Part shown: in pieces, positions 3,323 to 62,671 of the stretch | How positions within the stretch are numbered: the stretch's first letter is position 1 | Layout of the letters: every line of letters begins with the position of its first letter | From: a bacterium | GTDB lineage: Bacteria > Patescibacteriota > Minisyncoccia > Moranbacterales > GWC2-37-73 | Direction: 5' to 3' | Assembly: GCA_003251635.1 (NCBI GenBank) | Contig: QKEW01000013.1 | Span: 2,023-66,022, forward strand | DNA: 64,000 bases | Translations under genes and position numbers: made by a program | Notes under the pieces: generated by a model | Told to the model about the DNA's origin: nothing | The model's database searches: none | The model's input: the letters and a program-made list of their open reading frames with translations, nothing else

Positions 3323-5659
3323 ATGGGCAGGAGAAAAAAAGAAGATATTGAAAAAGAAAAACAACAAGAAGATCGCAAAGCCACAAGTCATGGTGACGTA
3401 AAAAGAGGTGCGGTGGCGGTTTTCCTTTTTGCCTTGTCAATCCTTTTTATTTTGGGGTTTATCGGGCAGGCTGGGTTATTGGGGCAATATTTGGATATTT
3501 TTGCCGGATCGCTTTTTGGTTGGGGAAAATGGCTTTCGCCTCTGGTTTTATCGGCAATCGGAATTGTTTTACTTTTTCGCAAGGAAGCTTTTTTCTATGT
3601 CTCTAAAATAATCGGTCTAGTGATATTATTTTTGAGTTTTTTGGGTTTTTTCCATCTCTATTTTGAGGTGGCTGATTTTTCTCAATTGGTTCACGAGGGA
3701 AGTGGCGGCGGTTATTTGGGTTACGGCATTGCCCTTGTTTTAATTAAAATTACCGGAAGAATTGGAGGAACGGTAATTTTAGCCGCTTTGATGATTTGTG
3801 GTGGGATATTTGCTTTCAATTTTTCCTTAGTGACTTTTTTACGCAAAATCTTTAAAAGAAAAATTAGGGAGATGCAGGAAGATGACGAGGGTGAGGAAGG
3901 TGAAAGTGAGCAAGAGTCTTCCGAAGAGGATGAAGATTTGGGAAATCCGTTAATAGAAAATGATTCCCAAGGTGAAGAGGGTGAAGAAAGTGATGATCAG
4001 GAAACCAAGGAGGATGAAGAGTCTGACTATGAGGTTCCGCCGGTAAAAAAATCAATCATCCAAAAATTATTGGGAGGTAAATCAGCAACTCGTGAAAAGG
4101 CCCAATGGCAATTTCCGCCATTAGATTTATTAGAGTCCTCCACTGACAAAGCCCTGGGTGGTGACACTAAAAAGAATGCCAAAATTATCCAAGATACGCT
4201 TAGACATTTTGGAATTGAGGTTGAAATCGGGGAAATTAAAACGGGACCAACCGTTACTCAATATAGTTTTCGGCCGGCAGTTGGGGTGAAATTAACTCGA
4301 ATAACAGCCCTGAATAATGATCTAGCGCTAGCTTTAGCTGCTCATCCAATCAGAATTGAAGCACCGATTCCAGGAAAATCCTTGATTGGAATCGAGGTGC
4401 CAAATAAATCAATTGCAATGGTAAGGATGCGAGAGCTTTTTGAAACCGCTGATTTTGCCAATCGTTCAACAAACTTATTGCTGGCACTGGGCAAGGACGT
4501 TAGTGGTAATTATGTTTACGCTGATCTGAAAAAAATGCCCCACTTGATGATTGCCGGTTCAACTAATAGTGGAAAAAGCGTTTGTGTTAATTCGATTATT
4601 TTATCCATGATTTATCAGAATTCGCCGGATGACTTGAAGTTAATTTTGGTTGATCCCAAAAGAGTGGAACTTTCTTTGTATAATGGAATTCCTCATCTTC
4701 TTTCGGATGTGATTGTGGAAAACGGAAAGGTTTTAAGTGCTTTGAAATGGGCGATTGGGGAAATGGAGCGACGATATAAAAAACTGCAACTAACTGGATC
4801 TCGGGATATAAATTCCTACAATAAAAAAGCGGAAAATGGCGAAACTGTTTCAGTGACTGATCCGGAAACCAATGAAACAATTGAAGAAGAGATTGAAAAA
4901 ATACCCTACATTGTGATTGTTATTGATGAGCTAGCTGATCTGATGGCGACTCATGGCAAAGAAGTTGAAGGTGCTATCATTAGATTAGCTCAAATGGCCC
5001 GAGCAGTGGGAATTCATTTGATTGTTAGTACTCAAAAGCCGGTCGTGACTGTTATTACCGGTTTGATTAAATCTAATATCCCGACCCGTATCGCTTTCAA
5101 GGTTCCTTCTCTAACTGACTCGCGAACCATGTTGGATAGTGGCGGAGCTGAAAAGCTTTTAGGAAACGGAGACATGCTTTTTCTTTCGGTTTCAGCCACT
5201 GGCCTAAAAAGAATCCAAGGAGTTTTTATTTCCGAAGAGGAAGTTAAGCGGGTAGTTGATTTTATCAGGGATCAAAAAATGATAACCGAAGAAGAATTGG
5301 ATGAAAATATAACCGGTCCGAATAGCGGTGAACAACAAGAATTAAATTTGCCCGAGGATCAAAAATTAGATTTTGGACAAATGGAATTCGAATCATCAGA
5401 TGAAGCTGAAGATGAGCTTTTTGAGGAAGCGAAAAAGATAGTTATTCAGGCTAAAAAAGCTTCAACTTCCTTTCTACAGCGAAGGTTGAGAATTGGTTAT
5501 TCTCGAGCTGCTCGCCTGGTGGATATGTTGGAGGATCGGGGAATTGTTGGTCCGGCGGACGGTGCTAAGGCGCGGGAAGTTTTGATTGACGGGGATGAGA
5601 AAATTAATTATCAAAATGATGCGGATGATCAATTTCAGCGGGATAAGTGGCAAATGTGA
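3323..5659 (+). CDS. ftsK: DNA translocase FtsK/SpoIIIE
   Basis: N-terminal TM helices and an acidic linker. Walker A GSTNSGKS, Walker B VIVIDELADL, C-terminal gamma winged-helix (RIGYSRAARLVDMLE). Confidence 0.9.
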   Translation: MGRRKKEDIEKEKQQEDRKATSHGDVKRGAVAVFLFALSILFILGFIGQAGLLGQYLDIFAGSLFGWGKWLSPLVLSAIGIVLLFRKEAFFYVSKIIGLVILFLSFLGFFHLYFEVADFSQLVHEGSGGGYLGYGIALVLIKITGRIGGTVILAALMICGGIFAFNFSLVTFLRKIFKRKIREMQEDDEGEEGESEQESSEEDEDLGNPLIENDSQGEEGEESDDQETKEDEESDYEVPPVKKSIIQKLLGGKSATREKAQWQFPPLDLLESSTDKALGGDTKKNAKIIQDTLRHFGIEVEIGEIKTGPTVTQYSFRPAVGVKLTRITALNNDLALALAAHPIRIEAPIPGKSLIGIEVPNKSIAMVRMRELFETADFANRSTNLLLALGKDVSGNYVYADLKKMPHLMIAGSTNSGKSVCVNSIILSMIYQNSPDDLKLILVDPKRVELSLYNGIPHLLSDVIVENGKVLSALKWAIGEMERRYKKLQLTGSRDINSYNKKAENGETVSVTDPETNETIEEEIEKIPYIVIVIDELADLMATHGKEVEGAIIRLAQMARAVGIHLIVSTQKPVVTVITGLIKSNIPTRIAFKVPSLTDSRTMLDSGGAEKLLGNGDMLFLSVSATGLKRIQGVFISEEEVKRVVDFIRDQKMITEEELDENITGPNSGEQQELNLPEDQKLDFGQMEFESSDEAEDELFEEAKKIVIQAKKASTSFLQRRLRIGYSRAARLVDMLEDRGIVGPADGAKAREVLIDGDEKINYQNDADDQFQRDKWQM

Positions 5660-5737
5660 AATTAACCCATGATTTGAATCGCAATTTTTCACATAATAAA
5701 CGGTTTTGAATAAACTGAGAAGAATAAATATCTGGTT

Positions 5738-6751
5738 ATGGTAAAGTTTACGACAAAAAAAATTAAATCGATAACTTTAGGCGAAAAAATGAAAAAATTT
5801 CGCCAAGAGCGTCGTTTGAGCTTGAGCGAAATATCTCGAAATGTTTCAGTTCAAACCAAATATTTGCAATACCTAGAAGAAGGTCAGTATTCTAAATTGC
5901 CGGCCCCAGTTTATGTTAAGGGTTTTTTGCGAAATTATGCTAATTTTGCCAATATGAGTCCGGAAAGTTTGATTAGGCAATATGAGAGAGAGCAAAAAAT
6001 TCAGCAAAATATAAATCAAAAAGAGGAGCCAATTAAAACCAAGAAACCGGAAAAATTTTCCAATTTAGTAATTACCCCAAGAATTATTTTAGTGGCCGTG
6101 GGCATATTTTTAGTTTTTTGGGGATTTTTATATTTATATCGACAAGTTAATAATTTTGTTTCAACTCCTCGTTTGGTTATTAAAAGCCCGGTGGCTGGAG
6201 CTGAAATTGACGGGCGTTTTGTGAGGGTTTCCGGGGTAGCTGAAAAGGATGCTCAGGTTCTGGTTAATGGGCAATCGATTTTAGTTAATGAAAATGGAGA
6301 ATTTAGTGAGGATGTGGGATTGAGAGAGGGTCTAAATGAAATAACTGTAGTGGCTAAAAATAAGTTCGATAAAGAGACTAGTGAAATGGTTTCGGTAAAT
6401 GCTAACTATCAAAATGAACCAACGGATTTTGATGTTGTTGATGGCGGAGAGGGCGGTTCAGGTGAAAACAGTGAGAATTCAACCGAGCCTGGTAAATTTT
6501 CAATGGAACTGAGGGTTGCTGAGGAGCCAACTTGGATTTCAATTGAGGCTGATGGCTCTCTAGTTTATAGTGGAGTTTTGTTGCCTGATTCAGTTCAGAA
6601 TTTTTCAGCTGAAAAGGAGATAAAGGTAACCTCTGGAAAAGGCAATAGTACTTTTATTAAAGTAAATGGAAAATCGGAAGAAGTTTTAAGTGAACAAGCA
6701 GGAGCGGTGCACGATCTAATTTTTACCCCCGATGGACGTGCCCAAATGTAG
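5738..6751 (+). CDS. rodZ: RodZ-like cytoskeleton protein (XRE-type HTH, TM segment, C-terminal DUF4115-like domain). The true start may be the ATG at 5789
   Basis: HTH region LSLSEISRNVSVQTKYLQYLEEG, a single TM helix, and a C-terminal beta-rich domain. Confidence 0.65.
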   Translation: MVKFTTKKIKSITLGEKMKKFRQERRLSLSEISRNVSVQTKYLQYLEEGQYSKLPAPVYVKGFLRNYANFANMSPESLIRQYEREQKIQQNINQKEEPIKTKKPEKFSNLVITPRIILVAVGIFLVFWGFLYLYRQVNNFVSTPRLVIKSPVAGAEIDGRFVRVSGVAEKDAQVLVNGQSILVNENGEFSEDVGLREGLNEITVVAKNKFDKETSEMVSVNANYQNEPTDFDVVDGGEGGSGENSENSTEPGKFSMELRVAEEPTWISIEADGSLVYSGVLLPDSVQNFSAEKEIKVTSGKGNSTFIKVNGKSEEVLSEQAGAVHDLIFTPDGRAQM

Positions 6752-30267: not shown

Positions 30268-30714
30268 GGATTTACGTTTGAAAAAAGTGATGCTTTCGGG
30301 CAGTGAAAATGAGTGCTAAAGTTTATTTTCAATCATTTTGAAAAACACTAGAAAAAAACAAAAAAAATCAAGCGGGTGAAATTGGGGTCATTTTGACTCT
30401 TAGTTGTCTCCGCTGAAAAAGCGGTTTTTTTGTTGCTTTAAAAAATGGTGCGAAAACAATTTCCAAAAAGCGTTTCGTATGTAATACGAACTTTGTAGAA
30501 TATGTTTCCGCATCAATCACTGAACTTTCAGTGATCGGTCACTTGAAAATTAAATAGAGTCTTTTTATGCGCGTGTAATTTTTCTCTTCTGTTTGGCGGA
30601 AAAAGAGAGGGTTGGGCGCAAAAGCATAATAAGTCTGAAATAGGTCAAAAAACAACACCGAAGAAAATTTGCAGTTAATCGTGATTGTTAACTGCTAACC
30701 GTTAAAAAATGAAA

Positions 30715-33772
<3,058 letters not shown>

Positions 33773-33859
33773 TTCTAATTTTTACGGTTAGTGGTTAAGA
33801 ATTACGATTTTTTGGAGGTTTTGTTTTTTGTTACTATTTCTTTTGTGTTAGATTGCATT

Positions 33860-33970
33860 GTCTTGGTGGCTTTTGCGGAGGGGGTACACCTCTTTCCATC
33901 TCGAACAGAGCAGTTAAGCCCTTTAGCGCCGATGGTACCTGTTTTCAGGGAGAGTAGGCCGTCGCCAAGA
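33860..33970 (+). rRNA. rrf: 5S ribosomal RNA
   Basis: Helix I tcttggtggc/gtcgccaaga. Conserved CCGAAC..AGTTAAGC..GCGCCGATGGTA..GAGAGTAGG segments. Confidence 0.85.
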
Positions 33971-43360: not shown

Positions 43361-44860
43361 ATGGACAAAAGTTACATCATTGAACAATTGAAATCACAAA
43401 TTGAAGGATTTAAGAGCGCTGCTAAGACTGAGAAAGTTGGCAAGGTTTTGGAAGTGGGTGACGGCGTAGCCAAAGTCAGCGGGCTTTCCGAGGTGATGTC
43501 CAGCGAGTTGGTGGAATTTGAATCCGGCGTGGTTGGAGTGGCGCTGAACTTGGAAGCGGATGAAGTCGGAGTGATGATAATGGGTGACTACACTAAGATT
43601 AAAGAAGGTGAAACAGTCAAATCCAGCGGCAAGATTTTGTCGATCCCGGTTTCTGACAAAATGATTGGGCGAGTTATTGATCCATTGGGTCAAACAATTG
43701 ATGGTAAGGAAGAAATCAAGGCAGAAAAATTTTATCCGGTGGAAAAAATCGCGCCAGGCGTGATGACTCGAAAATCAGTTCATCAGCCGGTGCAAACCGG
43801 AATCAAAGCCATTGATGCTATGATCCCGATTGGTCGCGGACAACGCGAATTGATTATTGGTGATCGTCAGACCGGAAAAACGGCCATTGCTATCGACACC
43901 ATTATTAATCAAAAAGGTCAAAATATGAAATGTGTCTATGTAGCCATTGGACAAAAGGAAAGTAAGATCGCTCGCATTGTGGCTGAATTGGAAAAAGCCG
44001 GAGCTATGGAATATACAACTGTAGTGGTGGCTGGAGCCAGTGATCCAGCCGCCCTTTCCTTTATCGCACCTTACAGTGGTTGCGCCTTGGCGGAATATTT
44101 CATGGACAAAGGTGAAGATGTTTTGGTGGTTTATGATGATCTCTCTCGCCATGCCTGGGCTTACCGTCAAGTGTCTTTGATTTTGCGTCGTCCACCGGGA
44201 CGTGAAGCTTATCCGGGAGATGTTTTTTATTTGCACTCACGTCTTTTGGAAAGAAGCGCCAAGCTCAATGAAGATTTTGGCGGGGGATCAATCACGGCGT
44301 TGCCGATTATTGAAACTCAAGCTGGAGATGTTTCAGCCTACATTCCAACAAACGTGATTTCAATCACGGATGGTCAAATTTATTTGGAAAGTGATTTGTT
44401 CTACAAAGGTGTGCGACCAGCGGTAAATGTTGGTTTGTCAGTTTCTCGAGTGGGTGGTAGTGCACAGATCAAGGCTATGAAAAAAGTAGCTGGAAAGTTG
44501 CGTTTGGATTTGGCGCAGTTTCGAGAATTGGAAGCTTTCGCACAATTCGGCAGCGACTTGGATGAAAAAACCCGAGCCCAGATTGAACGTGGAAAACGTA
44601 CGGTAGAAATTCTCAAGCAAGGACAATATGAGCCGATGGCAGTGGAAAATCAGGTAGCAATCATTTACGCTTTGACTAATGGATATTTGGATGATGTGGA
44701 AGTTGAGAAGATTAAGGCCTGGGAAATTGATTTTCATAAATTTCTCAAATCTCAAGGTAAGAATGTGATCGAAATTATTCGAGAGAAGAGGGAATTGTCT
44801 GACGAAGTTGTTGAGGCTTTGGAAAAAGGAATAAAGGAATTTAAGGAAATATATCAGTAA
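43361..44860 (+). CDS. atpA: F0F1 ATP synthase subunit alpha
   Basis: Walker [12 protein letters not shown], and alpha-specific conserved blocks. Confidence 0.95.
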
Positions 44861-44861
44861 T

Positions 44862-44950
44862 AACTCACAACTCACAACTCACAACTCACAACTGACAACG
44901 GACAATTAGCAACTAACAACAAAAAACTAACAACTGGCAACAGATAACCA
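44862..44950. repeat. Tandem octamer microsatellite (AACTCACA x4, decaying into AACTGACA/ACGGACAA/TTAGCAAC/TAACAACA units) in the atpA-atpG spacer. It is followed by a TAAGTT-type repeat
   Basis: Direct reading of four perfect units, then degenerate ones. Confidence 0.8.
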
Positions 44951-45023
44951 AAAACCAACAGAATTTTGCACAAGACGGGAATCTGGTTGTAAGTTATAAG
45001 TCGTAAGTTTTAAGTTAAATTAT

Positions 45024-47427
<2,404 letters not shown>

Positions 47428-49796: not shown

Positions 49797-50204
49797 ATGA
49801 GCAAAGAAAAAATTTTAAATTGGTTAAAGGTGGTAAATTTGGCAATAATTGTTTTAATGTTGCCAATAATGCTTTTAATGTTGCCTTATTCAATTGGATC
49901 ATTTCAGTCAGAAAGCATTTTTAACCCGCTTCTTTTTGAGGTAATCGGTTACTTGGCGGCGGCAGTTTTTGGATTTTTGGCTTTGAAGAAAAGAATATTT
50001 TTAATTTTCAGTTTGATTGGCTGGGCATTGCTTGTAACCGGCAATTATGTTGATTCAAAAAAAGCTCAAGAAGACAATAATCAAGCTTGTCTCGAGCTTC
50101 GTCAAGATAAAAATTGCTTGGAAAAAGAGGGCGGCACGATGGATTGTCGAACTGGTGAACATGCCGGTATTTATTCGAGGATTTGCACTGGCTTGGGGAA
50201 ATAA
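49797..50204 (+). CDS. hypothetical membrane protein
   Basis: Three TM helices. No motif. Confidence 0.4.
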   Translation: MSKEKILNWLKVVNLAIIVLMLPIMLLMLPYSIGSFQSESIFNPLLFEVIGYLAAAVFGFLALKKRIFLIFSLIGWALLVTGNYVDSKKAQEDNNQACLELRQDKNCLEKEGGTMDCRTGEHAGIYSRICTGLGK

Positions 50205-50225: not shown

Positions 50226-51275
50226 TTAGTCTTCTAAAAATTTTTCCACCAGTTTCTCGGCTTCGTTTGGATCCGGAATCCAAATTAAGTCGGGATTTTT
50301 TTTGAGCCAAGTCATTTGGCGTTTGGCGTAGTGGATGATGTCGAAAAAAAGTTTTTCTTGCATTTTGCTTTCGGAAATTTTATCTTGTAAAAATTCAGCC
50401 AAGCGGCGATATTCCAGACCGAAAGATTCCAAACGCTGCCAAGAAATTCCGCTTTGATGTAAATTTTGCACCTCTTGAAGCATGCCCTGCTCAAATCTTT
50501 CGTCCAGGCGTTTTTGAATTTTTTCTCGCAAGACTTCTTTTGGGACATCCAAAGCTAGCTGCAAAAATTCATAGCTTTTAGTTTTTAGCTTATTGTTTTC
50601 AGGTCGGGGAACTTTTCCCAGTTTTTGGCAGATTTCCAAAGCGCGAATCAGGCGGACCTTGTTTTTTGAATCAATGGCAGCGGCTCGCTGCGGGTCGATT
50701 TTTTGCAATTGGGCAAAAAGTTGCCGGGTGTTTTTTCTATCTAAATTTTTGCGTAAATCCAAATCCGGTTTGACTTGAGGAAAATCCAAATTGTCGGTGA
50801 TGGCTTGAATCCAAAAACCAGTGCCGCCACAAATGATCGGGAGTTTTTTTCTTTGCAAAATTTCCGGGATTTTTTCCAGGGCGTATTTTTTGAAATCTGC
50901 CACGTTGAAATCCTGATCAGGATTGATGATATCAATTCCATGGTGCACAATGCCGGCAGATAGATAGCTGCCATTTTTTAGCTTATAGCTTTTAGCTTCT
51001 AGCTCATTAGACTTAGGGGTGGATTCATGCTCCACGCTCCATGCTTCACGTTTCATGCTATGTGCCCCACGCTCCACGCTACTTGAATCACGCTCGACTT
51101 TACCAGTGCCCAAATCCATTCCACGATAAATCTGGCGGCTGTCCGCCGAGATGATTTCACCATCAAATTTTTGGGCCAATTGAATGGCCAAAGTTGATTT
51201 GCCGGAAGCTGTCGGTCCGGCAATGACTAGGATTTTAGGGAGTTTGTTCATGGTTTTATTAAAGCATAAAAACAT
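50226..51275 (-). CDS. miaA: tRNA dimethylallyltransferase MiaA, carrying a roughly 40-aa in-frame insertion after the P-loop region
   Basis: GPTASGKST P-loop and DSRQIYRGMDLGTGK. The conserved HHGIDII block resumes after the inserted segment. Confidence 0.9.
   Translation of the reverse strand: MFLCFNKTMNKLPKILVIAGPTASGKSTLAIQLAQKFDGEIISADSRQIYRGMDLGTGKVERDSSSVERGAHSMKREAWSVEHESTPKSNELEAKSYKLKNGSYLSAGIVHHGIDIINPDQDFNVADFKKYALEKIPEILQRKKLPIICGGTGFWIQAITDNLDFPQVKPDLDLRKNLDRKNTRQLFAQLQKIDPQRAAAIDSKNKVRLIRALEICQKLGKVPRPENNKLKTKSYEFLQLALDVPKEVLREKIQKRLDERFEQGMLQEVQNLHQSGISWQRLESFGLEYRRLAEFLQDKISESKMQEKLFFDIIHYAKRQMTWLKKNPDLIWIPDPNEAEKLVEKFLED
50958..51101. repeat. GC-rich interspersed repeat (CGCTCCACG family) inserted in-frame within miaA, preceded by TAGCTT-type short tandem repeats
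   Basis: catgctccacgctccatgc...tgccccacgctccacgct shares long identical words with the copies at 52435-52485 and 62262-62388. Confidence 0.6.
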
Positions 51276-51352
51276 TAAAATATGAAAACATCAAAGCATT
51301 AAAACACGAGAATAATAAAACATTAAAGCATGAAAGAGGGAATTTTCAAAGC

Positions 51353-51450: not shown

Positions 51451-51747
51451 ATGGAACTGGGCTTGTTGAGCATTAACTTGTATTTAAGCGGAGTTTTTTC
51501 TTTAGGATTCTATTTGATGTTTTTATCAGTGATATCGGCTGGACTCATTGATAAAAAAGTCCATAGGCGTATGGTGATTGTGATTGTGGTTATAGCCGTG
51601 GTTTTTATTGCGATCACTTTTACAATTTTGTTGTTCCTTTTGTTTAAAAAGGAGTCTGGAATCGTAATTGTGATTTTATTGATTGGGGGTCTGATTAGCG
51701 TTTTTCATAAAAAAATCCTTTCAAACCCCAAACCCCAGTCCGAGTGA
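51451..51747 (+). CDS. small hydrophobic protein (three TM helices)
   Basis: ATG preceded by GGAGGT. The 3' end overlaps the miaB stop region convergently. Confidence 0.45.
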   Translation: MELGLLSINLYLSGVFSLGFYLMFLSVISAGLIDKKVHRRMVIVIVVIAVVFIAITFTILLFLLFKKESGIVIVILLIGGLISVFHKKILSNPKPQSE

Positions 51748-53080
51748 TTTGGGCTGGGAGGATTTGACCAACCAATGATTCAATTGAATCAGGTTGGTCA
51801 AGTTGAATACGAACATTTTTCAAAGTGCGGGTTTTGCCAAAGCAAAGCCCGCCTTTTTCTTTTTCTATCAAAACTTCCACGGTTTGATGGAGATATTTTT
51901 GATTATTTTCTCGAGCGGTTTTTTTGAGGATTTCATTGAGAAATTTTTCACGCCGAACTTTTTCCGGCTTGGAAACGTCATCAGTCATTTTCCAAGCGGC
52001 GGTTAGGGGACGCGGAGAATATTGTCCGAAAAAAACCATATCAAATCCAACCTGCTCCATGATTTGGGCAGATTGTTGAAACTGCTGCTCGCTCTCGCCG
52101 GGAAAACCGACGATGATGTCAGTAGAAATGGAAAAAAGTTTACCAGGCTTGTTTTGGGCAAAGCCTTTTTTTATTTTCTCAATCAGCTTGAGATAATCCT
52201 CAGCTTTATATTTGCGATTCATGCGCCGCAAAATTTCGTCGTCGCCGGCTTGCAGCGGCAAATGAACATTTTCGCAAACTTTCGGTAGCGACGTGATGGC
52301 TTGGATAGTTTCATCGCTCATGTCTTTGGGGTGAGAGGAAAGGAAGTAGATCCAAAAATCACCCTCCAAATCATTGACCATTTTGAGCAGCTGGGCAAAA
52401 TTAACCATTGGCTCAAGTTTTGCATTCCGAGCCATGCTTTCCGCATTTTGTGTTTCGCGCTCCACGTTTCGCGCTCCACGATAGGAATTTACATTTTGTC
52501 CCAAAAGCACGATGCTTTTGTAACCTTCGGAAACGAGGGATTTTATTTCGTCTAAAATTTCCTGAGCGGGACGGGAAATTTCACGGCCACGGGCATAGGG
52601 AACTGAGCAATAGGCGCAAAAATTGTTGCAGCCGGTCATGATGGGGACCAGGGCTTGAAATTTATTTTGGCGCCGAGGTTGAATGGAAAGATAATTTTCA
52701 ATTTTTTTCGAATCCGTGCAAGAAAGCTGAAAATTGTTTTGCAAGAATTTTTCAATCTCTTGGGGAAAGTTTTTGATCTCGGTGAAGAGGTCGGCGTTTT
52801 TGAGACGGCGATGAATGTCTTGGCGATTAGCCAAACAACCGGTGATGATGATTTTGATTTGAGGATTTTTCTTTTTGAGATTGCGAGCCAAACCAAAAAC
52901 TCGATCCTCAGCCATTTGACGGACCGAGCAAGTATTGATGATAGCCAAATCAGCTTCCAAATATTTTTCCGATCGACGAAAGCCTTTTTCTTGCAAAAAG
53001 CAGTTAATGCGCTCGCTGTCGGAAATGTTCATCTGGCAGCCGAAGGTTTTGATGAAATAGTTTTTAGATCTTGGGTTCAC
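51695..53080 (-). CDS. miaB: tRNA methylthiotransferase MiaB (radical SAM MTTase)
   Basis: UPF0004 N-terminal Cys triad. Radical SAM motif CNNFCAYCSVP, and a TRAM C-terminus. Confidence 0.85.
   Translation of the reverse strand: MNPRSKNYFIKTFGCQMNISDSERINCFLQEKGFRRSEKYLEADLAIINTCSVRQMAEDRVFGLARNLKKKNPQIKIIITGCLANRQDIHRRLKNADLFTEIKNFPQEIEKFLQNNFQLSCTDSKKIENYLSIQPRRQNKFQALVPIMTGCNNFCAYCSVPYARGREISRPAQEILDEIKSLVSEGYKSIVLLGQNVNSYRGARNVERETQNAESMARNAKLEPMVNFAQLLKMVNDLEGDFWIYFLSSHPKDMSDETIQAITSLPKVCENVHLPLQAGDDEILRRMNRKYKAEDYLKLIEKIKKGFAQNKPGKLFSISTDIIVGFPGESEQQFQQSAQIMEQVGFDMVFFGQYSPRPLTAAWKMTDDVSKPEKVRREKFLNEILKKTARENNQKYLHQTVEVLIEKEKGGLCFGKTRTLKNVRIQLDQPDSIESLVGQILPAQITRTGVWGLKGFFYEKR
52435..52485. 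repeat. short copy of the CGCTCCACG repeat family inside miaB
   Basis: tttcgcgctccacgtttcgcgctccacg. Produces about 10 extra residues (ERETQNAESMA) between conserved blocks. Confidence 0.55.
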
Positions 53081-53133: not shown

Positions 53134-54873
53134 TTATTTTTTCTCTTTAATCTCTTTTTTAACTTTCTCCAAGAAATCTGTCAGTCCCAAAGTTTCTGGT
53201 TTTTCTTGGCCACGAACATTGACGGCGACAGTTTCGTCTTTTTCTTCTTTTTCTCCAACTACCAAAAGGTAGGGAACTTTTTGTATTTTGCTTTCGCGAA
53301 TGCGTTTGCCTAGAGACTCATCCGAGTCATTGATTTCGGTGCGAATATTGGCTTTGAGTAAATTTTTGGCGACTTTTTGGGCGTAGTCCTTGAATTTTTC
53401 GCTGACCGGTAAAACAGTGACTTGAATCGGTGAGAGCCAAAGGGGAAAGTTGCCGGCAAAATGTTCGGTTAAAATCCCAATGAATCTTTCAAATGATCCA
53501 AAGATGGCGGCGTGAATCATCACAGGCGTAGCTTTTTTTCCATCCGAGTCGACATATTCCAATTGAAATCTTTGTGGCAATTGGAAGTCCAATTGAATGG
53601 TAGCCAGTTGCCAAGAGCGTCCCAGAGCGTCATTTATGTTGATGTCGATTTTTGGTCCATAGAAAGCACCATCTTTTTCTTTGAGATCAAAAGAAATTTT
53701 TTCTTTTTGGAGGGCTTGGCGTAAATCTTCTTCAGCCTTGTCCCAAGTTTCAATTTTGCCTAAAAATTCTTCCGGTCGGGTTGAGAGGAAAAATTTCGGT
53801 TCAATGTCAAAAACTTGGTAATATTCCTTAACCATTTTTAGAAGTTGAACGATTTCATTTTCTACTTGATTTTCACTGGCGAAAATATGGGCGTCATCTT
53901 GAGTAATGGCTCGAACTCGAAAAAGTCCATTGAGCTCACCGGATTTTTCATTGCGAAACACGCGGCCAATTTCACTAAAACGAATGGGCAATTCTTTGTA
54001 GGAGTGATGACGAGCTTGATAAATCTTGATGTTGAAAGGGCAATCCATTGGTTTGAGACAATAAACGTCATTTTCAACTCCAAAAGAAAACATGTCATCT
54101 TTGTAGTGGTCCCAGTGCCCGGAAGTTTTCCAAAGAATATTTTTGGCCAATTGGGGAGTTTGGATTTCTTGACTGCCATATTTTTGGCGCAGATTTTTGC
54201 CGAATTTTTCCAGTTCATTCCAAATGACCATGCCTTTTGGATGCCAAAAGACACTACCAGGAGCTTCACTGTGAAAAGAGAAGAGATCCAGCTCTTTGCC
54301 AATTTTTTTGTGGTCTCTTTTTTGGGCTTCTTCCAATTGCCCCAGATAATTTTTCAGTTCCTTTTTATTTTCAAAAGCCACTCCATAAATTCTTTGAAGT
54401 TGAGCCTTATCGGCGTCGCCTTTCCAATAGGCGCCGGAAATTTTGGTTAGCTTAATGGCTTCGGCGTTAATTTCACCGGTTGATTCCAAATGAGGACCAG
54501 CACATAGGTCAATAAAATCACCGCATCTGTAAACTGAAACATGGGAATTATTTTCTTGGGCCAGATCTTCAATGATTTCAACTTTATAGGGCTGATCACT
54601 TTGAGAAAATTTTTCGCGAGCTTCCTGAATCGAAATTTCAGCTTTTTCGAATTCGAGATTTTGCTGGATGATTTTTTTCATTTCATTTTCCAGAAGTTCC
54701 AAATCTTCAGGAATCAAGGTGCGAGGCAATTGGAAGTCGTAGTAGAAGCCGTTTTCAATGGCTGGTCCCATGCCGAATTTGGCTTCGGGAAACATTTTCA
54801 AAACGGCCGCGGCCAGGACATGGGCAGTTGAATGGCGGATAATTTCAATTTGACTGGTTTGTTTTTTGTTCAT
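53134..54873 (-). CDS. thrS: threonyl-tRNA synthetase, lacking the N-terminal TGS domain
   Basis: Starts at the second (editing-like) domain HxxxH motif (HSTAHVLAAAV). Class II motifs 1-3 and an anticodon-binding domain are present. Confidence 0.9.
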   Translation of the reverse strand: MNKKQTSQIEIIRHSTAHVLAAAVLKMFPEAKFGMGPAIENGFYYDFQLPRTLIPEDLELLENEMKKIIQQNLEFEKAEISIQEAREKFSQSDQPYKVEIIEDLAQENNSHVSVYRCGDFIDLCAGPHLESTGEINAEAIKLTKISGAYWKGDADKAQLQRIYGVAFENKKELKNYLGQLEEAQKRDHKKIGKELDLFSFHSEAPGSVFWHPKGMVIWNELEKFGKNLRQKYGSQEIQTPQLAKNILWKTSGHWDHYKDDMFSFGVENDVYCLKPMDCPFNIKIYQARHHSYKELPIRFSEIGRVFRNEKSGELNGLFRVRAITQDDAHIFASENQVENEIVQLLKMVKEYYQVFDIEPKFFLSTRPEEFLGKIETWDKAEEDLRQALQKEKISFDLKEKDGAFYGPKIDININDALGRSWQLATIQLDFQLPQRFQLEYVDSDGKKATPVMIHAAIFGSFERFIGILTEHFAGNFPLWLSPIQVTVLPVSEKFKDYAQKVAKNLLKANIRTEINDSDESLGKRIRESKIQKVPYLLVVGEKEEKDETVAVNVRGQEKPETLGLTDFLEKVKKEIKEKK

Positions 54874-55008: not shown

Positions 55009-55230
55009 AGCCTCTGCTATTTGATTTGTTTTGAGTTTTGGTTTTTAAATTCAAATTTTCAAACAAAAAACCCAAAAAACTTCAGAATATCGAGACCCGG
55101 TGGTGGGTGGTTCCACTCGATTTCCCAAAATTTTTTGGGCGCTTTTTGAAAGTTTTTCGCCACTTTCGGTCGAAGGCGGGAACTCAGCGGGCGGTTAATC
55201 CGCATCAAAATTCCATTTAATTGTGATTTG

Positions 55231-61906: not shown

Positions 61907-62671
61907 ATGAACTTGTCAAATGATTTTTTGAAAGCAGAAAAAGAGCTGAAAAATAAAGGGTTTGGGCGAATTATTGGAGTGGACGAAGCCGGTCGGGGTC
62001 CGCTCTGCGGTCCGGTGGTAGCGGCGGCAGTTTGTTTGCGCACCGATTTGGATGATTTGAGCGAGGAATTTTTGATGGACGAAAATTGGAATTTGGTGCG
62101 TGATTCCAAAAAACTTAGCGAAAAACAACGTGAAAAAGTGTTTAGTTTTATTTGGGAAAATTTTCAGGTGGGGATCGGTATTTGTGATCACCAAACTATT
62201 GATCGCATCAATATTTTGGAAGCCAGTTTTCTGGCTATGAAAAAGGCGATAAATGATTTGGAGCGCAAAACGCGTAACACGGAACGTGAAACGCATAGTC
62301 CGAAAGGGAAAGTTAATTGTTTGAATGATTCGCATTGCATCTCAAATTCATTCGCTCCACGCTCCACGCTCCATGCCCCACGCTTAATAATTTTAGTTGA
62401 TGGTAACAAAAAAATTCCCAATTTTTCCGCCGAGCAATTGGCGATTGTGGGCGGAGACAAAAAGATTAAATCGATTTCAGCCGCTTCAATTGTGGCCAAA
62501 GTAACGCGGGATCGGATGATGGAGGAGTTTGATCAAAAATATCCCGGCTATGGTTTTGCCAAGCACAAGGGTTATGGTACCAAAGCTCATCTGGAAGCCC
62601 TGGAAAAATTTGGGCCTTGTGAAATTCATCGCCAATCTTTTGGTCCGGTCAAAAAGTGGAAAAGGGCTTGA
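61907..62671 (+). CDS. rnhB: ribonuclease HII, carrying a roughly 35-aa in-frame insertion
   Basis: GVDEAGRGPLCGPVVAAAV active-site start and DSKKLS. The conserved LVDGN block resumes after the inserted segment. Confidence 0.9.
   Translation: MNLSNDFLKAEKELKNKGFGRIIGVDEAGRGPLCGPVVAAAVCLRTDLDDLSEEFLMDENWNLVRDSKKLSEKQREKVFSFIWENFQVGIGICDHQTIDRINILEASFLAMKKAINDLERKTRNTERETHSPKGKVNCLNDSHCISNSFAPRSTLHAPRLIILVDGNKKIPNFSAEQLAIVGGDKKIKSISAASIVAKVTRDRMMEEFDQKYPGYGFAKHKGYGTKAHLEALEKFGPCEIHRQSFGPVKKWKRA
62262..62388. repeat. GC-rich palindromic-type interspersed repeat (CGCTCCACG family) inserted in-frame in rnhB
   Basis: Left arm aaacgcgtaacacggaacgtgaaacgcatag and right arm cgctccacgctccacgctccatgccccacgctt. 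The words are shared with the miaA and miaB copies. Confidence 0.6.

Follow-up and report, generated by a model that had tools for sequence, protein, structure and literature searches.

Heptanucleotide repeats constitute the most abundant class of long simple sequence repeats (SSRs) in many bacteria (Mrazek et al. 2007, as cited in PMC4679880 and PMC4692102). Examples are the TAACTGA repeats of Beggiatoaceae, cyanobacteria and Bacteroidetes (PMC4679880), the GGGNATC repeats of Xanthomonas and Nostoc (PMC4692102) and those of Calothrix PCC7601 (as cited in PMC4692102). Polymerase slippage has been proposed for such repeats, and within open reading frames (ORFs) stop codons limit their orientation (PMC4679880, PMC4692102). 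Dispersed bacterial heptanucleotide repeats have been known since about 1990, and their period-7 specificity, their dispersal and their function are not understood (PMC4679880, PMC4692102). A different kind of repeat is represented by the Rickettsia palindromic elements (RPEs), discrete elements of about 150 bp. Ten families of them are distinguished, each of which codes for a conserved peptide (Ogata et al. 2000, as cited in PMC10969869). The present work deals with a segment of extra DNA within rnhB, the gene of RNase HII, on a stretch of 64 kb (referred to as "the window" in the following) whose host, judged by the source names of the best RnhB and MiaA homologues, is an uncultured bacterium of Candidatus Moranbacteria, which belong to the Candidate Phyla Radiation (CPR) or Patescibacteria. 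This segment consists of two degenerate heptanucleotide arrays paired in inverted orientation. They are probably akin to the cyanobacterial heptanucleotide repeats known as STRR, being resized in steps of one unit and surviving where they are translated, in frame and free of stops, as a disordered loop. Among known kinds of repeat, dispersed heptanucleotide repeats (long SSR, STRR or TAACTGA type) come closer to the segment than RPEs do. We found no description in the literature examined of heptamer arrays or in-frame repeat insertions in genomes of CPR, Patescibacteria or Moranbacteria.

The gene and the parts of the extra segment are located as follows:

61907 to 62671, plus strand: rnhB (RNase HII), intact ORF of 254 amino acids (translation, Pfam, alignment with Thermotoga maritima RNase HII, AlphaFold).

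62262 to 62296, plus strand: left arm, five degenerate heptamers, AGCGCAA AACGCGT AACACGG AACGTGA AACGCAT (sequence, unit parse).

62297 to 62352, plus strand: AT-rich spacer of unique sequence, GC content about 0.33, encoding part of a low-confidence coil (sequence, BLAST).

62353 to 62385, plus strand: right arm, CGCTCCA three times followed by TGCCCCA and CGCTT, period 7, 4.6 copies (Tandem Repeats Finder, TRF).

In the translation of rnhB the conserved blocks LAMKKAINDL and LIILVDGN enclose ERKTRNTERETHSPKGKVNCLNDSHCISNSFAPRSTLHAPR, and the peptide and the DNA quoted for this segment in the preliminary description of the locus turned out to be exact. The Pfam family RNase_HII (PF01351) matches on both sides of the segment. 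Residues 122 to 160 of RnhB are without counterpart in Thermotoga maritima RNase HII (3o3g, 2etj), whose chain has 2 residues at this position, which corresponds to an insert of about 37 amino acids directly preceding the strand that carries the VDG motif with the catalytic Asp. Hence, the presence of an additional in-frame segment which leaves the ORF unbroken is borne out. An AlphaFold model based on 49 orthologues (mean predicted local distance difference test, pLDDT, of 87) suggests that the first ten or so residues of the insert lengthen helix 103-129, which is prolonged by the peptide ERKTRNTERETH encoded in the left arm, and that residues from about 130 to 158 form a coil followed by a strand (159-165). 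In successive blocks of residues 131 to 160 the mean pLDDT values amount to 62, 47 and 66, indicating a low-confidence surface excursion. This agrees with the surface location suspected beforehand.

The left array can be approximated as five copies of AACGYGR, with a sixth, decayed unit extending to 62303; the right arm encodes APRSTLHAPR, and the longest run of identical units in the rnhB arrays comprises three units. With GC contents of 0.70 (right arm) and 0.51 (left arm), compared to 0.33 in the spacer and 0.39 in the window, both arms are, as had been described, richer in GC than the AT-rich spacer between them. They do form an inverted pair, yet neither is a unique arm sequence, each being a period-7 tandem array. 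Translation of the loop is expected to yield the tryptic peptides TRNTERETHSPK and STLHAPR. Exactly the same RnhB is found on a 70-kb contig in NCBI, JGI and Logan, the Logan assembly (L081) being an independent one, and related RnhB inserts are present in many independent metagenomes. An assembly artefact or a chimera is ruled out by the independent assembly of the same RnhB and by discordant alleles on many contigs (69 for P0072 and 41 for P0126).

The preference for a period of seven extends well beyond rnhB. When lags from 3 to 12 were compared in an autocorrelation of the window, 26 positions with at least 28 of 35 matches were obtained for lag 7, whereas all other lags gave zero. In a census of tandem arrays, the 189 kb available from Moranbacteria contained 14 arrays of period 7 (7.4 per 100 kb) versus a single one in 1.26 Mb from other bacteria (0.08 per 100 kb), i.e. 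an about 90-fold enrichment in the Moranbacteria DNA surveyed (about 190 kb), the density per 100 kb being inflated by ascertainment as most of the Moranbacteria loci were gathered because they contain rnhB. Free of this ascertainment are the arrays in dnaE, miaB and miaA as well as the autocorrelation within the window. The control consists of loci from distant phyla obtained in a search of genome contigs by RnhB alignment (identity not exceeding 49%; no Moranbacteria among the matches listed). No other base period between 2 and 15 is enriched in Moranbacteria, the four arrays of period 14 corresponding to twice seven.

The word CGCTCCACG occurs six times in the window, compared to 0.11 expected occurrences, and none of 100 shuffled sequences reaches six. 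Two of these sites are located in rnhB, one in miaA (51070) and two in miaB (52458 and 52472); the sixth, at 32006 on the minus strand, falls in the 23S rRNA gene and is probably unrelated. The recurrence of the word family within miaA and miaB, in frame and on the opposite strand, had been noticed before and is thereby confirmed; the family is also found in the corresponding loops of many Moranbacteria orthologues. The arrays outside rnhB and the genes harbouring them are:

50226 to 51275, minus strand: miaA ORF, likely true start ATG at 51251 (Pfam, homologue comparison).

50955 to 51086, minus strand: miaA insert of about 41 amino acids, VERDSSSVERGAHSMKREAWSVEHESTPKSNELEAKSYKLKNGSY (solved homologues).

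50572 to 50599, minus strand: second AGCTAAA-type period-7 array in miaA, located apart from the main insert and encoding KLKTKSY (TRF).

51695 to 53080, minus strand: miaB ORF (Pfam, homologue comparison).

52452 to 52480, minus strand: miaB array with a 14-nt unit (two times seven), GTTTCGC GCTCCAC, 2.1 copies (TRF).

44858 to 44960, plus strand: left array of the atpA-atpG spacer, four times CTCACAA followed by decaying units (TRF).

44986 to 45016, plus strand: right array of the atpA-atpG spacer, GTTGTAA GTTATAA GTCGTAA GTTTTAA (TRF).

51258 to 51335, no strand assigned: period-8 array, AAAGCATN, about nine copies, immediately preceding miaA; in its words it resembles the heptamer family, from which it differs in period (TRF).

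The miaA insert holds an array of the GCTCCAY family (51026-51080, read on the plus strand), which is the same family as in rnhB, together with an array of the AGCTAAA family (50976-51004). In miaB the array is part of about 16 extra residues, ARNVERETQNAESMARNAK, relative to solved homologues. Both ORFs are intact despite their additional 41 and 16 or so residues. In the atpA-atpG spacer the right array represents an inverse of the left one modified by G-to-A changes. Altogether, six of the nine arrays in the window lie within ORFs, and in relatives arrays are found in rnhB, dnaE and miaB. Repeat DNA built in frame into conserved enzymes, and not a conserved protein domain, is thus what the preliminary description had correctly recognised.

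Some observations on the remainder of the window may be added here. An ORF without Pfam match (49797..50204) contains, at 49839-49885, 2.2 copies of a tandemly repeated 21-nt unit (88% match). The 23S rRNA match, within 30710-33970 of the window, spans 3069 nt compared to a model of 2925 positions and is followed by 5S rRNA, and there is no 16S gene anywhere in the 64 kb; the rRNA genes therefore appear to be unlinked, or else the 23S rRNA gene contains small insertions.

Across unrelated loci and genomes the same few units recur, namely GGAGCRT/AACRTGR, AGCTAAA, CTCACAA, CAATTTY/AATTTCG, AAATACG and AGTCATC. The (CTCACAA)n array of the atpA-atpG spacer, for instance, is identical over 31 of 31 nt to an array in the rnhB loop of L215 (BLAST). 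Cyclic translation of the units reproduces the peptides actually observed (RSTLHAP, CSMLHAP, WSVERGA, WSMEHGA, NMEHGTW, LTTHNSQ, QFPISNF, KYEIRNT and SHQSSVI). A scan of metagenomes for CTCCAYGCTCCAYGCTCCA returned 120 loci, mostly from unrelated high-GC organisms, while those of low GC content are heterogeneous CTCCATG arrays without partner arms among which L136 alone is informative. As CTCCAYG arrays are common in unrelated, mostly high-GC metagenome contigs, this unit is widespread and not diagnostic of one particular element. On the 41%-GC metagenome contig L136, an ORF at 5189-6037 which by its sequence resembles PyrK, the electron-transfer subunit of dihydroorotate dehydrogenase, carries two in-frame arrays, (CTACACG)4 and (CTCCACG)5, with the peptides TLHATRYTL and STLHAPRSTL.

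These arrays share with dispersed heptanucleotide repeats the head-to-tail arrangement of 7-nt units over-represented against other periods, the use of few unit sequences at many loci (here within about 190 kb surveyed) with no known dispersal mechanism, the interruption of copies by related 7-mers, the 7-residue repeat arising upon translation and the limitation of their orientation in ORFs by stop codons. Known heptanucleotide repeats, however, are overwhelmingly intergenic, copies within ORFs being rare and situated at protein ends (PMC4679880), whereas here they lie inside catalytic domains of housekeeping enzymes. Furthermore, several unit families coexist here, and while long SSRs were associated with large genomes (PMC4692102), the genome of the present host, a member of the CPR, is small.

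To compare the site among relatives, 120 Moranbacteria RnhB proteins (50-67% identity) were considered, together with the DNA of ten orthologous rnhB genes whose orthology is backed by the conserved order dnaE-rnhB-rpmF-nusB-rnc. The stretch from LAMKKA to ILVDGN ranges from 8 to 80 residues. Six rnhB genes (window, L083, L086, L208, L209 and L210) share the layout of an A-rich array, a spacer and a C-rich array; no two of them agree in the number of units or in the length and sequence of the spacer. In three further orthologues the same site contains only direct arrays of unrelated heptamers, (CTCACAA)4, (CAATTTY)n and (AAATACG)4, which do not fold, and in L082, the closest relative of the window RnhB, there is a plain loop of 10 residues without any insert. 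Inserts of the hairpin family are found in 13 of the 120 proteins, ten more possessing one recognisable arm, and they are scattered on the RnhB tree. This loop of RnhB is a hotspot for heptamer arrays throughout Candidatus Moranbacteria. A second such hotspot of RnhB is observed near residues 45-62, where arrays are present in L215 (10126-10166), L217 (10130-10164) and L220 (10187-10308); the window RnhB has a non-repetitive insertion of 13 residues there relative to Thermotoga.

The MiaA loop behaves similarly, with lengths between 10 and 54 residues in 120 orthologues. Its GAWSVERGAF/GAWSMEHGAF peptide, present as an 18-residue form in about 25 orthologues, corresponds to (TGGAGCR)n and hence to the complement of the right arm of rnhB. 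Likewise, SHQSSVISHQ derives from (AGTCATC)n, which is the array found in dnaE of L083, and KIQDTRYEIQ and NDQFPIS match families of RnhB inserts. Repeats of another kind also occur in these loops. In L210 (rnhB of P0072) a different small palindromic repeat (2644-2851), seen at the DNA level, is nested within the loop of the heptamer hairpin and encodes the peptides SLRECNRSKQSR...SPRISEYRNTRDD, which are found in P0049 and P0092 as well. The RnhB or MiaA loops of P0030, P0032, P0055, P0067, P0074, P0088, P0112, P0171, P0236 and P0283 look, as far as peptides can tell, like translations of other widespread GC-rich palindromic repeats (CHSRxGGNP..WIPAFAGMT, PSPQPSPERRGG, HPELVSGS..QVRNDR and VILSERSESKDL..LRFGQNDN). 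The RnhB and MiaA loops thus seem to accept several classes of repeats. At L086 (3650-5144) a pair of genes resembling a diversity-generating retroelement (bAvd and a reverse transcriptase, RVT_1) is situated between thrS and dnaE, near rnhB; nothing was seen that would connect it with the arrays.

If the insert were a lineage-specific functional extension of the protein, i.e. a loop or helix elongation under selection at the protein level with a merely incidental DNA periodicity, one could point to the many RnhB orthologues with some insertion at this site, to the predicted extension of the helix by its first ten or so residues and to the 18-residue MiaA loop common to about 25 orthologues. 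The range of 8 to 80 residues with unrelated sequences, the low model confidence over most of the insert, the exact correspondence of the peptides to cyclic translations of heptamer units and the co-variation of the arms at the nucleotide level, described below, largely refute this explanation, which we consider next to untenable. What relatives have in common at these sites is heptamer periodicity and co-varying arms in the DNA, and not a conserved peptide. Near-identical alleles likewise speak against this explanation, as in the pair of RnhB proteins P0121 and P0126, whose flanks are identical in 199 of 204 residues (97.5%; 94 of 94 in the C-terminal flank) while their inserts of 75 and 37 amino acids are unalignable. 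The insert of P0121 instead resembles those of P0092 and P0049, though the flanks are only 87-88% identical to the latter. Alleles of the P0121 type and of the P0126 type are each found on many contigs.

Such discordance between the history of the insert and that of the gene (P0121, P0126 and P0092) would also be expected from a mobile selfish small element resembling an RPE, a miniature inverted-repeat transposable element (MITE) or a small dispersed repeat, that is, a heptamer-array hairpin which inserts at permissive sites and is kept where the frame is preserved. The occurrence of the same unit families at unrelated loci of different genomes, the patchy presence on the RnhB tree including the absence from the closest relative, and the other palindromic families in the same loops (CHSR..AFAGMT and the PSPQPSPERRGG family from peptides only, the nested repeat of L210 from DNA) are in favour of it. 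In cyanobacteria, Elhai and co-workers are said to have found in 2008 small dispersed repeats within tandem heptamer repeats. Nevertheless, no second copy of the right-arm 33-mer exists in the window at up to three mismatches, and BLAST of the full rnhB insert and of its spacer against all DNA compared retrieved heptamer arrays only and no copy of the whole unit of arms plus spacer. Unit number, spacer length and spacer sequence vary in all six hairpin-bearing orthologues, and many sites consist of a single direct array without partner. At the rnhB junctions, compared to the insert-less L082, neither terminal inverted repeats nor a target-site duplication are seen. Finally, there is no transposase among the 15 ORFs of the window scanned against Pfam, although no search aimed specifically at transposases was made. 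Transposition of the rnhB insert is not demonstrated by these data, and we regard a mobile element of this kind as rather unlikely.

The preliminary description had taken the segment for the signature of a selfish repeat analogous to RPEs. As to the outcome, in-frame repeat DNA within enzymes, with further copies of the units elsewhere, this view is partly supported; as to the nature of the element, it is not supported, given the missing whole-unit copy, the varying unit number and spacer, the single direct arrays elsewhere and the junctions devoid of visible inverted repeats or duplications. The likeness to RPEs (PMC10969869) consists in in-frame repeat DNA within unrelated metabolic or housekeeping genes, a functional-looking gene, an insert compatible with the fold and a host with a reduced genome. 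In contrast to RPEs, there is no conserved full-length unit or peptide here, the building block is a 7-nt unit of variable number, pairing is restricted to the antisense strand and the host is a member of Moranbacteria instead of Rickettsia. With repetitive extragenic palindromic sequences (REPs), their hairpin-forming doublets (REPINs) and MITEs the arrays share the short, dispersed nature, the hairpin potential and, in some cases, in-frame fusions (PMC3116915, PMC3733652, PMC10969869). Unlike REPs, which are fixed palindromes of 20-40 bp, usually extragenic and linked to REP-associated tyrosine transposases (RAYTs), each arm is made up of tandem units and varies in length, and the terminal inverted repeats and target-site duplications of MITEs are not seen at the rnhB junctions. 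The tandem repeats of Borgs are, according to the abstract of PMC9879509, similarly fast-evolving, recently and independently formed, and add disordered segments to proteins; they belong, however, to archaeal extrachromosomal elements, and that abstract mentions neither inverted pairing nor a restriction to period 7, while here the unit is 7 nt and inverted pairs occur. Since seven is not a multiple of three, the frame can be preserved here only by selection on total length. Palindromic amphipathic repeat coding elements (PARCELs; PMC2996958), which have 75-nt units in membrane ORFs, were set aside.

A conspicuous property of the inverted pair is its asymmetry between the strands:

62259 to 62388, minus strand: strand on which the arms pair; in the resulting long hairpin 32 base pairs connect the two arms, including 10 of the G.U type (RNA folding).

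The sense RNA of the rnhB segment folds with -28.6 kcal/mol and a z-score of +0.1 against shuffled sequences, i.e. at chance level, while the antisense RNA reaches -46.2 kcal/mol with a z-score of -2.8. The palindrome originally proposed therefore exists on the antisense strand when wobble pairs are admitted and is absent from the sense strand. The same holds for the atpA-atpG spacer, where the sense strand has a z-score of -1.1 and the antisense strand (-49.3 kcal/mol, z-score -5.9) forms a hairpin of at least 31 bp. When folding was scanned along the 64 kb in sliding intervals, the plus strand, being G-rich, was more stable by a mean of 8 kcal/mol; the rnhB and atp-spacer hairpins are nonetheless the two most extreme intervals in favour of the minus strand. 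The single direct arrays of miaA and miaB fold within chance on either strand. A strong minus-strand hairpin not built from heptamers (z-score -4.2) is located at 55050-55160 upstream of thrS (53134..54873, minus strand) and possibly represents a leader or regulatory structure.

Antisense folding is likewise observed in all six hairpin-bearing rnhB genes, with z-scores from -2.6 to -7.6. About 23-31% of the arm pairs are G.U (45 of 193 when pooled). Non-Watson-Crick arm positions pooled from the six rnhB genes and the atp spacer comprise 62 which read A.C in the sense strand, 15 which read G.T and 13 of transversion type. The binomial p of 6e-8 for A.C versus G.T overstates the significance, since arm positions and six related orthologues are treated as independent; for the two elements of the window alone p amounts to 0.016. 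The excess of A.C runs counter to the G-rich plus strand, on which 60 wobble stems are otherwise found versus 8 on the minus strand. A mutational bias as the source of the asymmetry would have to be a C-to-T change specific to the minus strand and appears unlikely, as the GC skew of the window is strongly positive and the background G.T stems favour the plus strand. Between groups of orthologues the core of the units co-varies in both arms, ACG.. going along with CACG in one group (window, L083, L209) and ACATG being combined with CATG in the other (L086, L208, L210), which amounts to a double change from G-C to A-U in every unit of both arms.

These features might reflect a hairpin selected in a strand-specific manner antisense to genes, be it as an antisense RNA, as an RNase III target by which antisense transcripts are destroyed, or as a single-stranded DNA hairpin related to replication. 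Folding confined to the antisense strand at two unrelated loci of the window and in six rnhB orthologues, the share of G.U pairs, the unequal classes of mismatches and the double changes throughout both arms all fit such a function, as does a sigma-70-like promoter match of 11/12 on the minus strand (45046 to 45019) just upstream of the atp-spacer hairpin. That single match, however, is within chance for an AT-rich region, three promoter-like matches having been found versus 1.7 expected. A scan for intrinsic terminators detected no U-tract or terminator-like site after either hairpin. In Rfam searches at gathering score only rRNA and tRNA were identified in the window; over 62150-62500 there was no match at E<=1, and permissive settings over 44780-45100 yielded only eukaryotic matches at chance level, so that the hairpins match no Rfam RNA family, while intein motifs were not the subject of a specific search. 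For a required structure it would be odd to be missing in the closest relative and to be replaced by unrelated sequence in an allele of 97.5% identity. In addition, the excess of A.C would also arise if hairpins in the mRNA were selected against. The six orthologues do not count as independent cases, and the co-variation could reflect a separate formation of each palindrome. A census of wobble hairpins revealed no heptamer hairpin in minus-strand genes (the background being high at 18 bp and long hits being ordinary, non-heptamer hairpins); "antisense to the gene" and "minus chromosomal strand" are therefore not separable here. On balance, a selected antisense structure strikes us as unlikely. 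Inverted pairs with strand-asymmetric pairing also set the present arrays apart from TAACTGA repeats, for which MacGregor reported one inverted repeat in 170 sets and direct repeats without predicted structure (PMC4679880).

A further aspect concerns the reading frame. The rnhB orthologues differ in unit number. A 16-kb contig related to P0072 encodes rnhB as two ORFs, the break coinciding with the right-arm array: P0122 ends with ...CSMFHVI* and P0123 resumes downstream. When the sister allele P0072 is shortened in silico by a single GCTCCAT, a frameshift ending with ...CSMFHII* results, so that this single variant, judged from its protein termini, is consistent with the loss of one unit. In simulations the frame is lost whenever one unit is added or removed, with an immediate stop also in the window gene, while a change by three units keeps it. 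Moreover, (AGCTAAA)n and (AACGTGA)n contain stop codons, and wherever they occur within genes the stop is replaced by a TAT or CAT variant. As a rule, the frame is intact in the 120 RnhB and 120 MiaA orthologues.

With a unit length which is not a multiple of three, a natural variant fitting a one-unit deletion that truncates rnhB and an immediate stop upon simulated gain or loss of a unit, rnhB, miaA or miaB might be imagined to be contingency loci, switched off and on by frameshifts of plus or minus one unit (phase variation). The likeness to phase-variable SSRs (e.g. of Haemophilus; PMC2651432) indeed lies in a non-triplet unit within an ORF whose gain or loss shifts the frame. Typical phase-variable SSRs are found in surface or modification genes, where units of 1-5 nt form long and perfect tracts. 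The present arrays, by contrast, are short and degenerate with at most three identical units in rnhB, and they reside in housekeeping genes, unlike the typical surface or restriction-modification genes, with the frame intact as a rule; the single variant stems from a metagenome-assembled contig. Contingency loci thus appear very unlikely.

The explanation which we favour, and hold to be probable, is that the rnhB segment is a pair of inverted heptamer arrays shaped by slippage and by what the gene tolerates. Arrays would arise and be resized through slippage by whole units, as proposed for heptanucleotide long SSRs in general. As seven is not a multiple of three, essential genes would retain only net length changes divisible by three (e.g. 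three units, corresponding to 21 nt or 7 amino acids), and they would retain only those unit orientations and variants which are free of stop codons. Whichever of the three frames is read, a heptamer array yields one and the same cyclic peptide of 7 residues, which makes survival easier and makes the survivors look as if "inserted in frame". The translated product would be a polar, disordered surface loop tolerated by the enzyme, and old arrays would decay to ordinary loop sequence. Where two inverted arrays of the same family come together, a perfect palindrome would give the mRNA a hairpin of 25-35 bp. If G is changed to A in the arm that bears the G residues, A.C mismatches would arise and disarm this sense hairpin, and by such changes G.U pairs necessarily remain on the antisense strand. 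Whole inserts may be swapped or replaced between strains, by recombination or by re-formation, faster than the genes diverge. In rnhB itself the arrays would have no dedicated function. Within this account slippage, the selective filter and the avoidance of a sense hairpin are inferred, while the periodicity, the recurring units, the hypervariable sites, the discordant alleles, the variant fitting a unit deletion and the strand asymmetry are observed.

Several points weigh against this explanation, the ascertainment in the period-7 census mentioned above being one of them. Slippage alone leaves unexplained why period 7 occurs exclusively and why the same few units are found across unrelated loci and genomes; the recurrence of units suggests some process of dispersal or templating. 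Arrays within genes are degenerate, and imperfect arrays slip poorly. There is only one unit-deletion variant, for which the evidence is at the protein level and an assembly or sequencing error is possible. The disarmed hairpin is not uniform either, the sense strand folding in L208 (z-score -3.7) and in L210 (z-score -5.6, in part due to the nested palindrome), and the co-variation of the arm cores is equally expected if pairing itself is selected. Replacement of whole inserts between alleles of 97.5% identity looks more like cassette exchange or insertion than like gradual slippage. Since period-7 exclusivity, unit recurrence and insert swapping are not accounted for, both a mobile hairpin element and a selected antisense structure have to be kept under consideration. 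A further reading would be an undescribed class of elements in Moranbacteria, and perhaps in other CPR bacteria, in which inverted pairs of arrays forming a one-strand G.U hairpin spread or are exchanged between strains as cassettes and enter surface loops of essential enzymes and operon spacers, the hairpin (as antisense RNA or single-stranded DNA) being what is selected or mobilised and the loop a tolerated by-product. We put this forward as a speculative and somewhat doubtful idea; if it was true, it would offer a testable dispersal mechanism for the long-unexplained bacterial heptamer repeats.

With the arrays described here, dispersed heptanucleotide repeats appear in a new context, namely in tiny CPR genomes and inside the catalytic domains of RNase HII, MiaA, MiaB and DnaE. 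Orthologous sites which gain, lose and swap arrays among near-identical strains, together with a variant resembling a one-unit deletion, provide handles on the processes behind them, and the mismatch pattern of inverted pairs reads out strand-specific selection. For the annotation and phylogenomics of CPR bacteria the arrays call for caution, as loops may be built from repeats, genes may be split at arrays and assemblies are able to break there. Should the hairpin prove to be the active entity, it would constitute a new kind of small genetic element. In any case, these loci present a concrete example of non-triplet repeats feeding new disordered loop sequence into conserved proteins.

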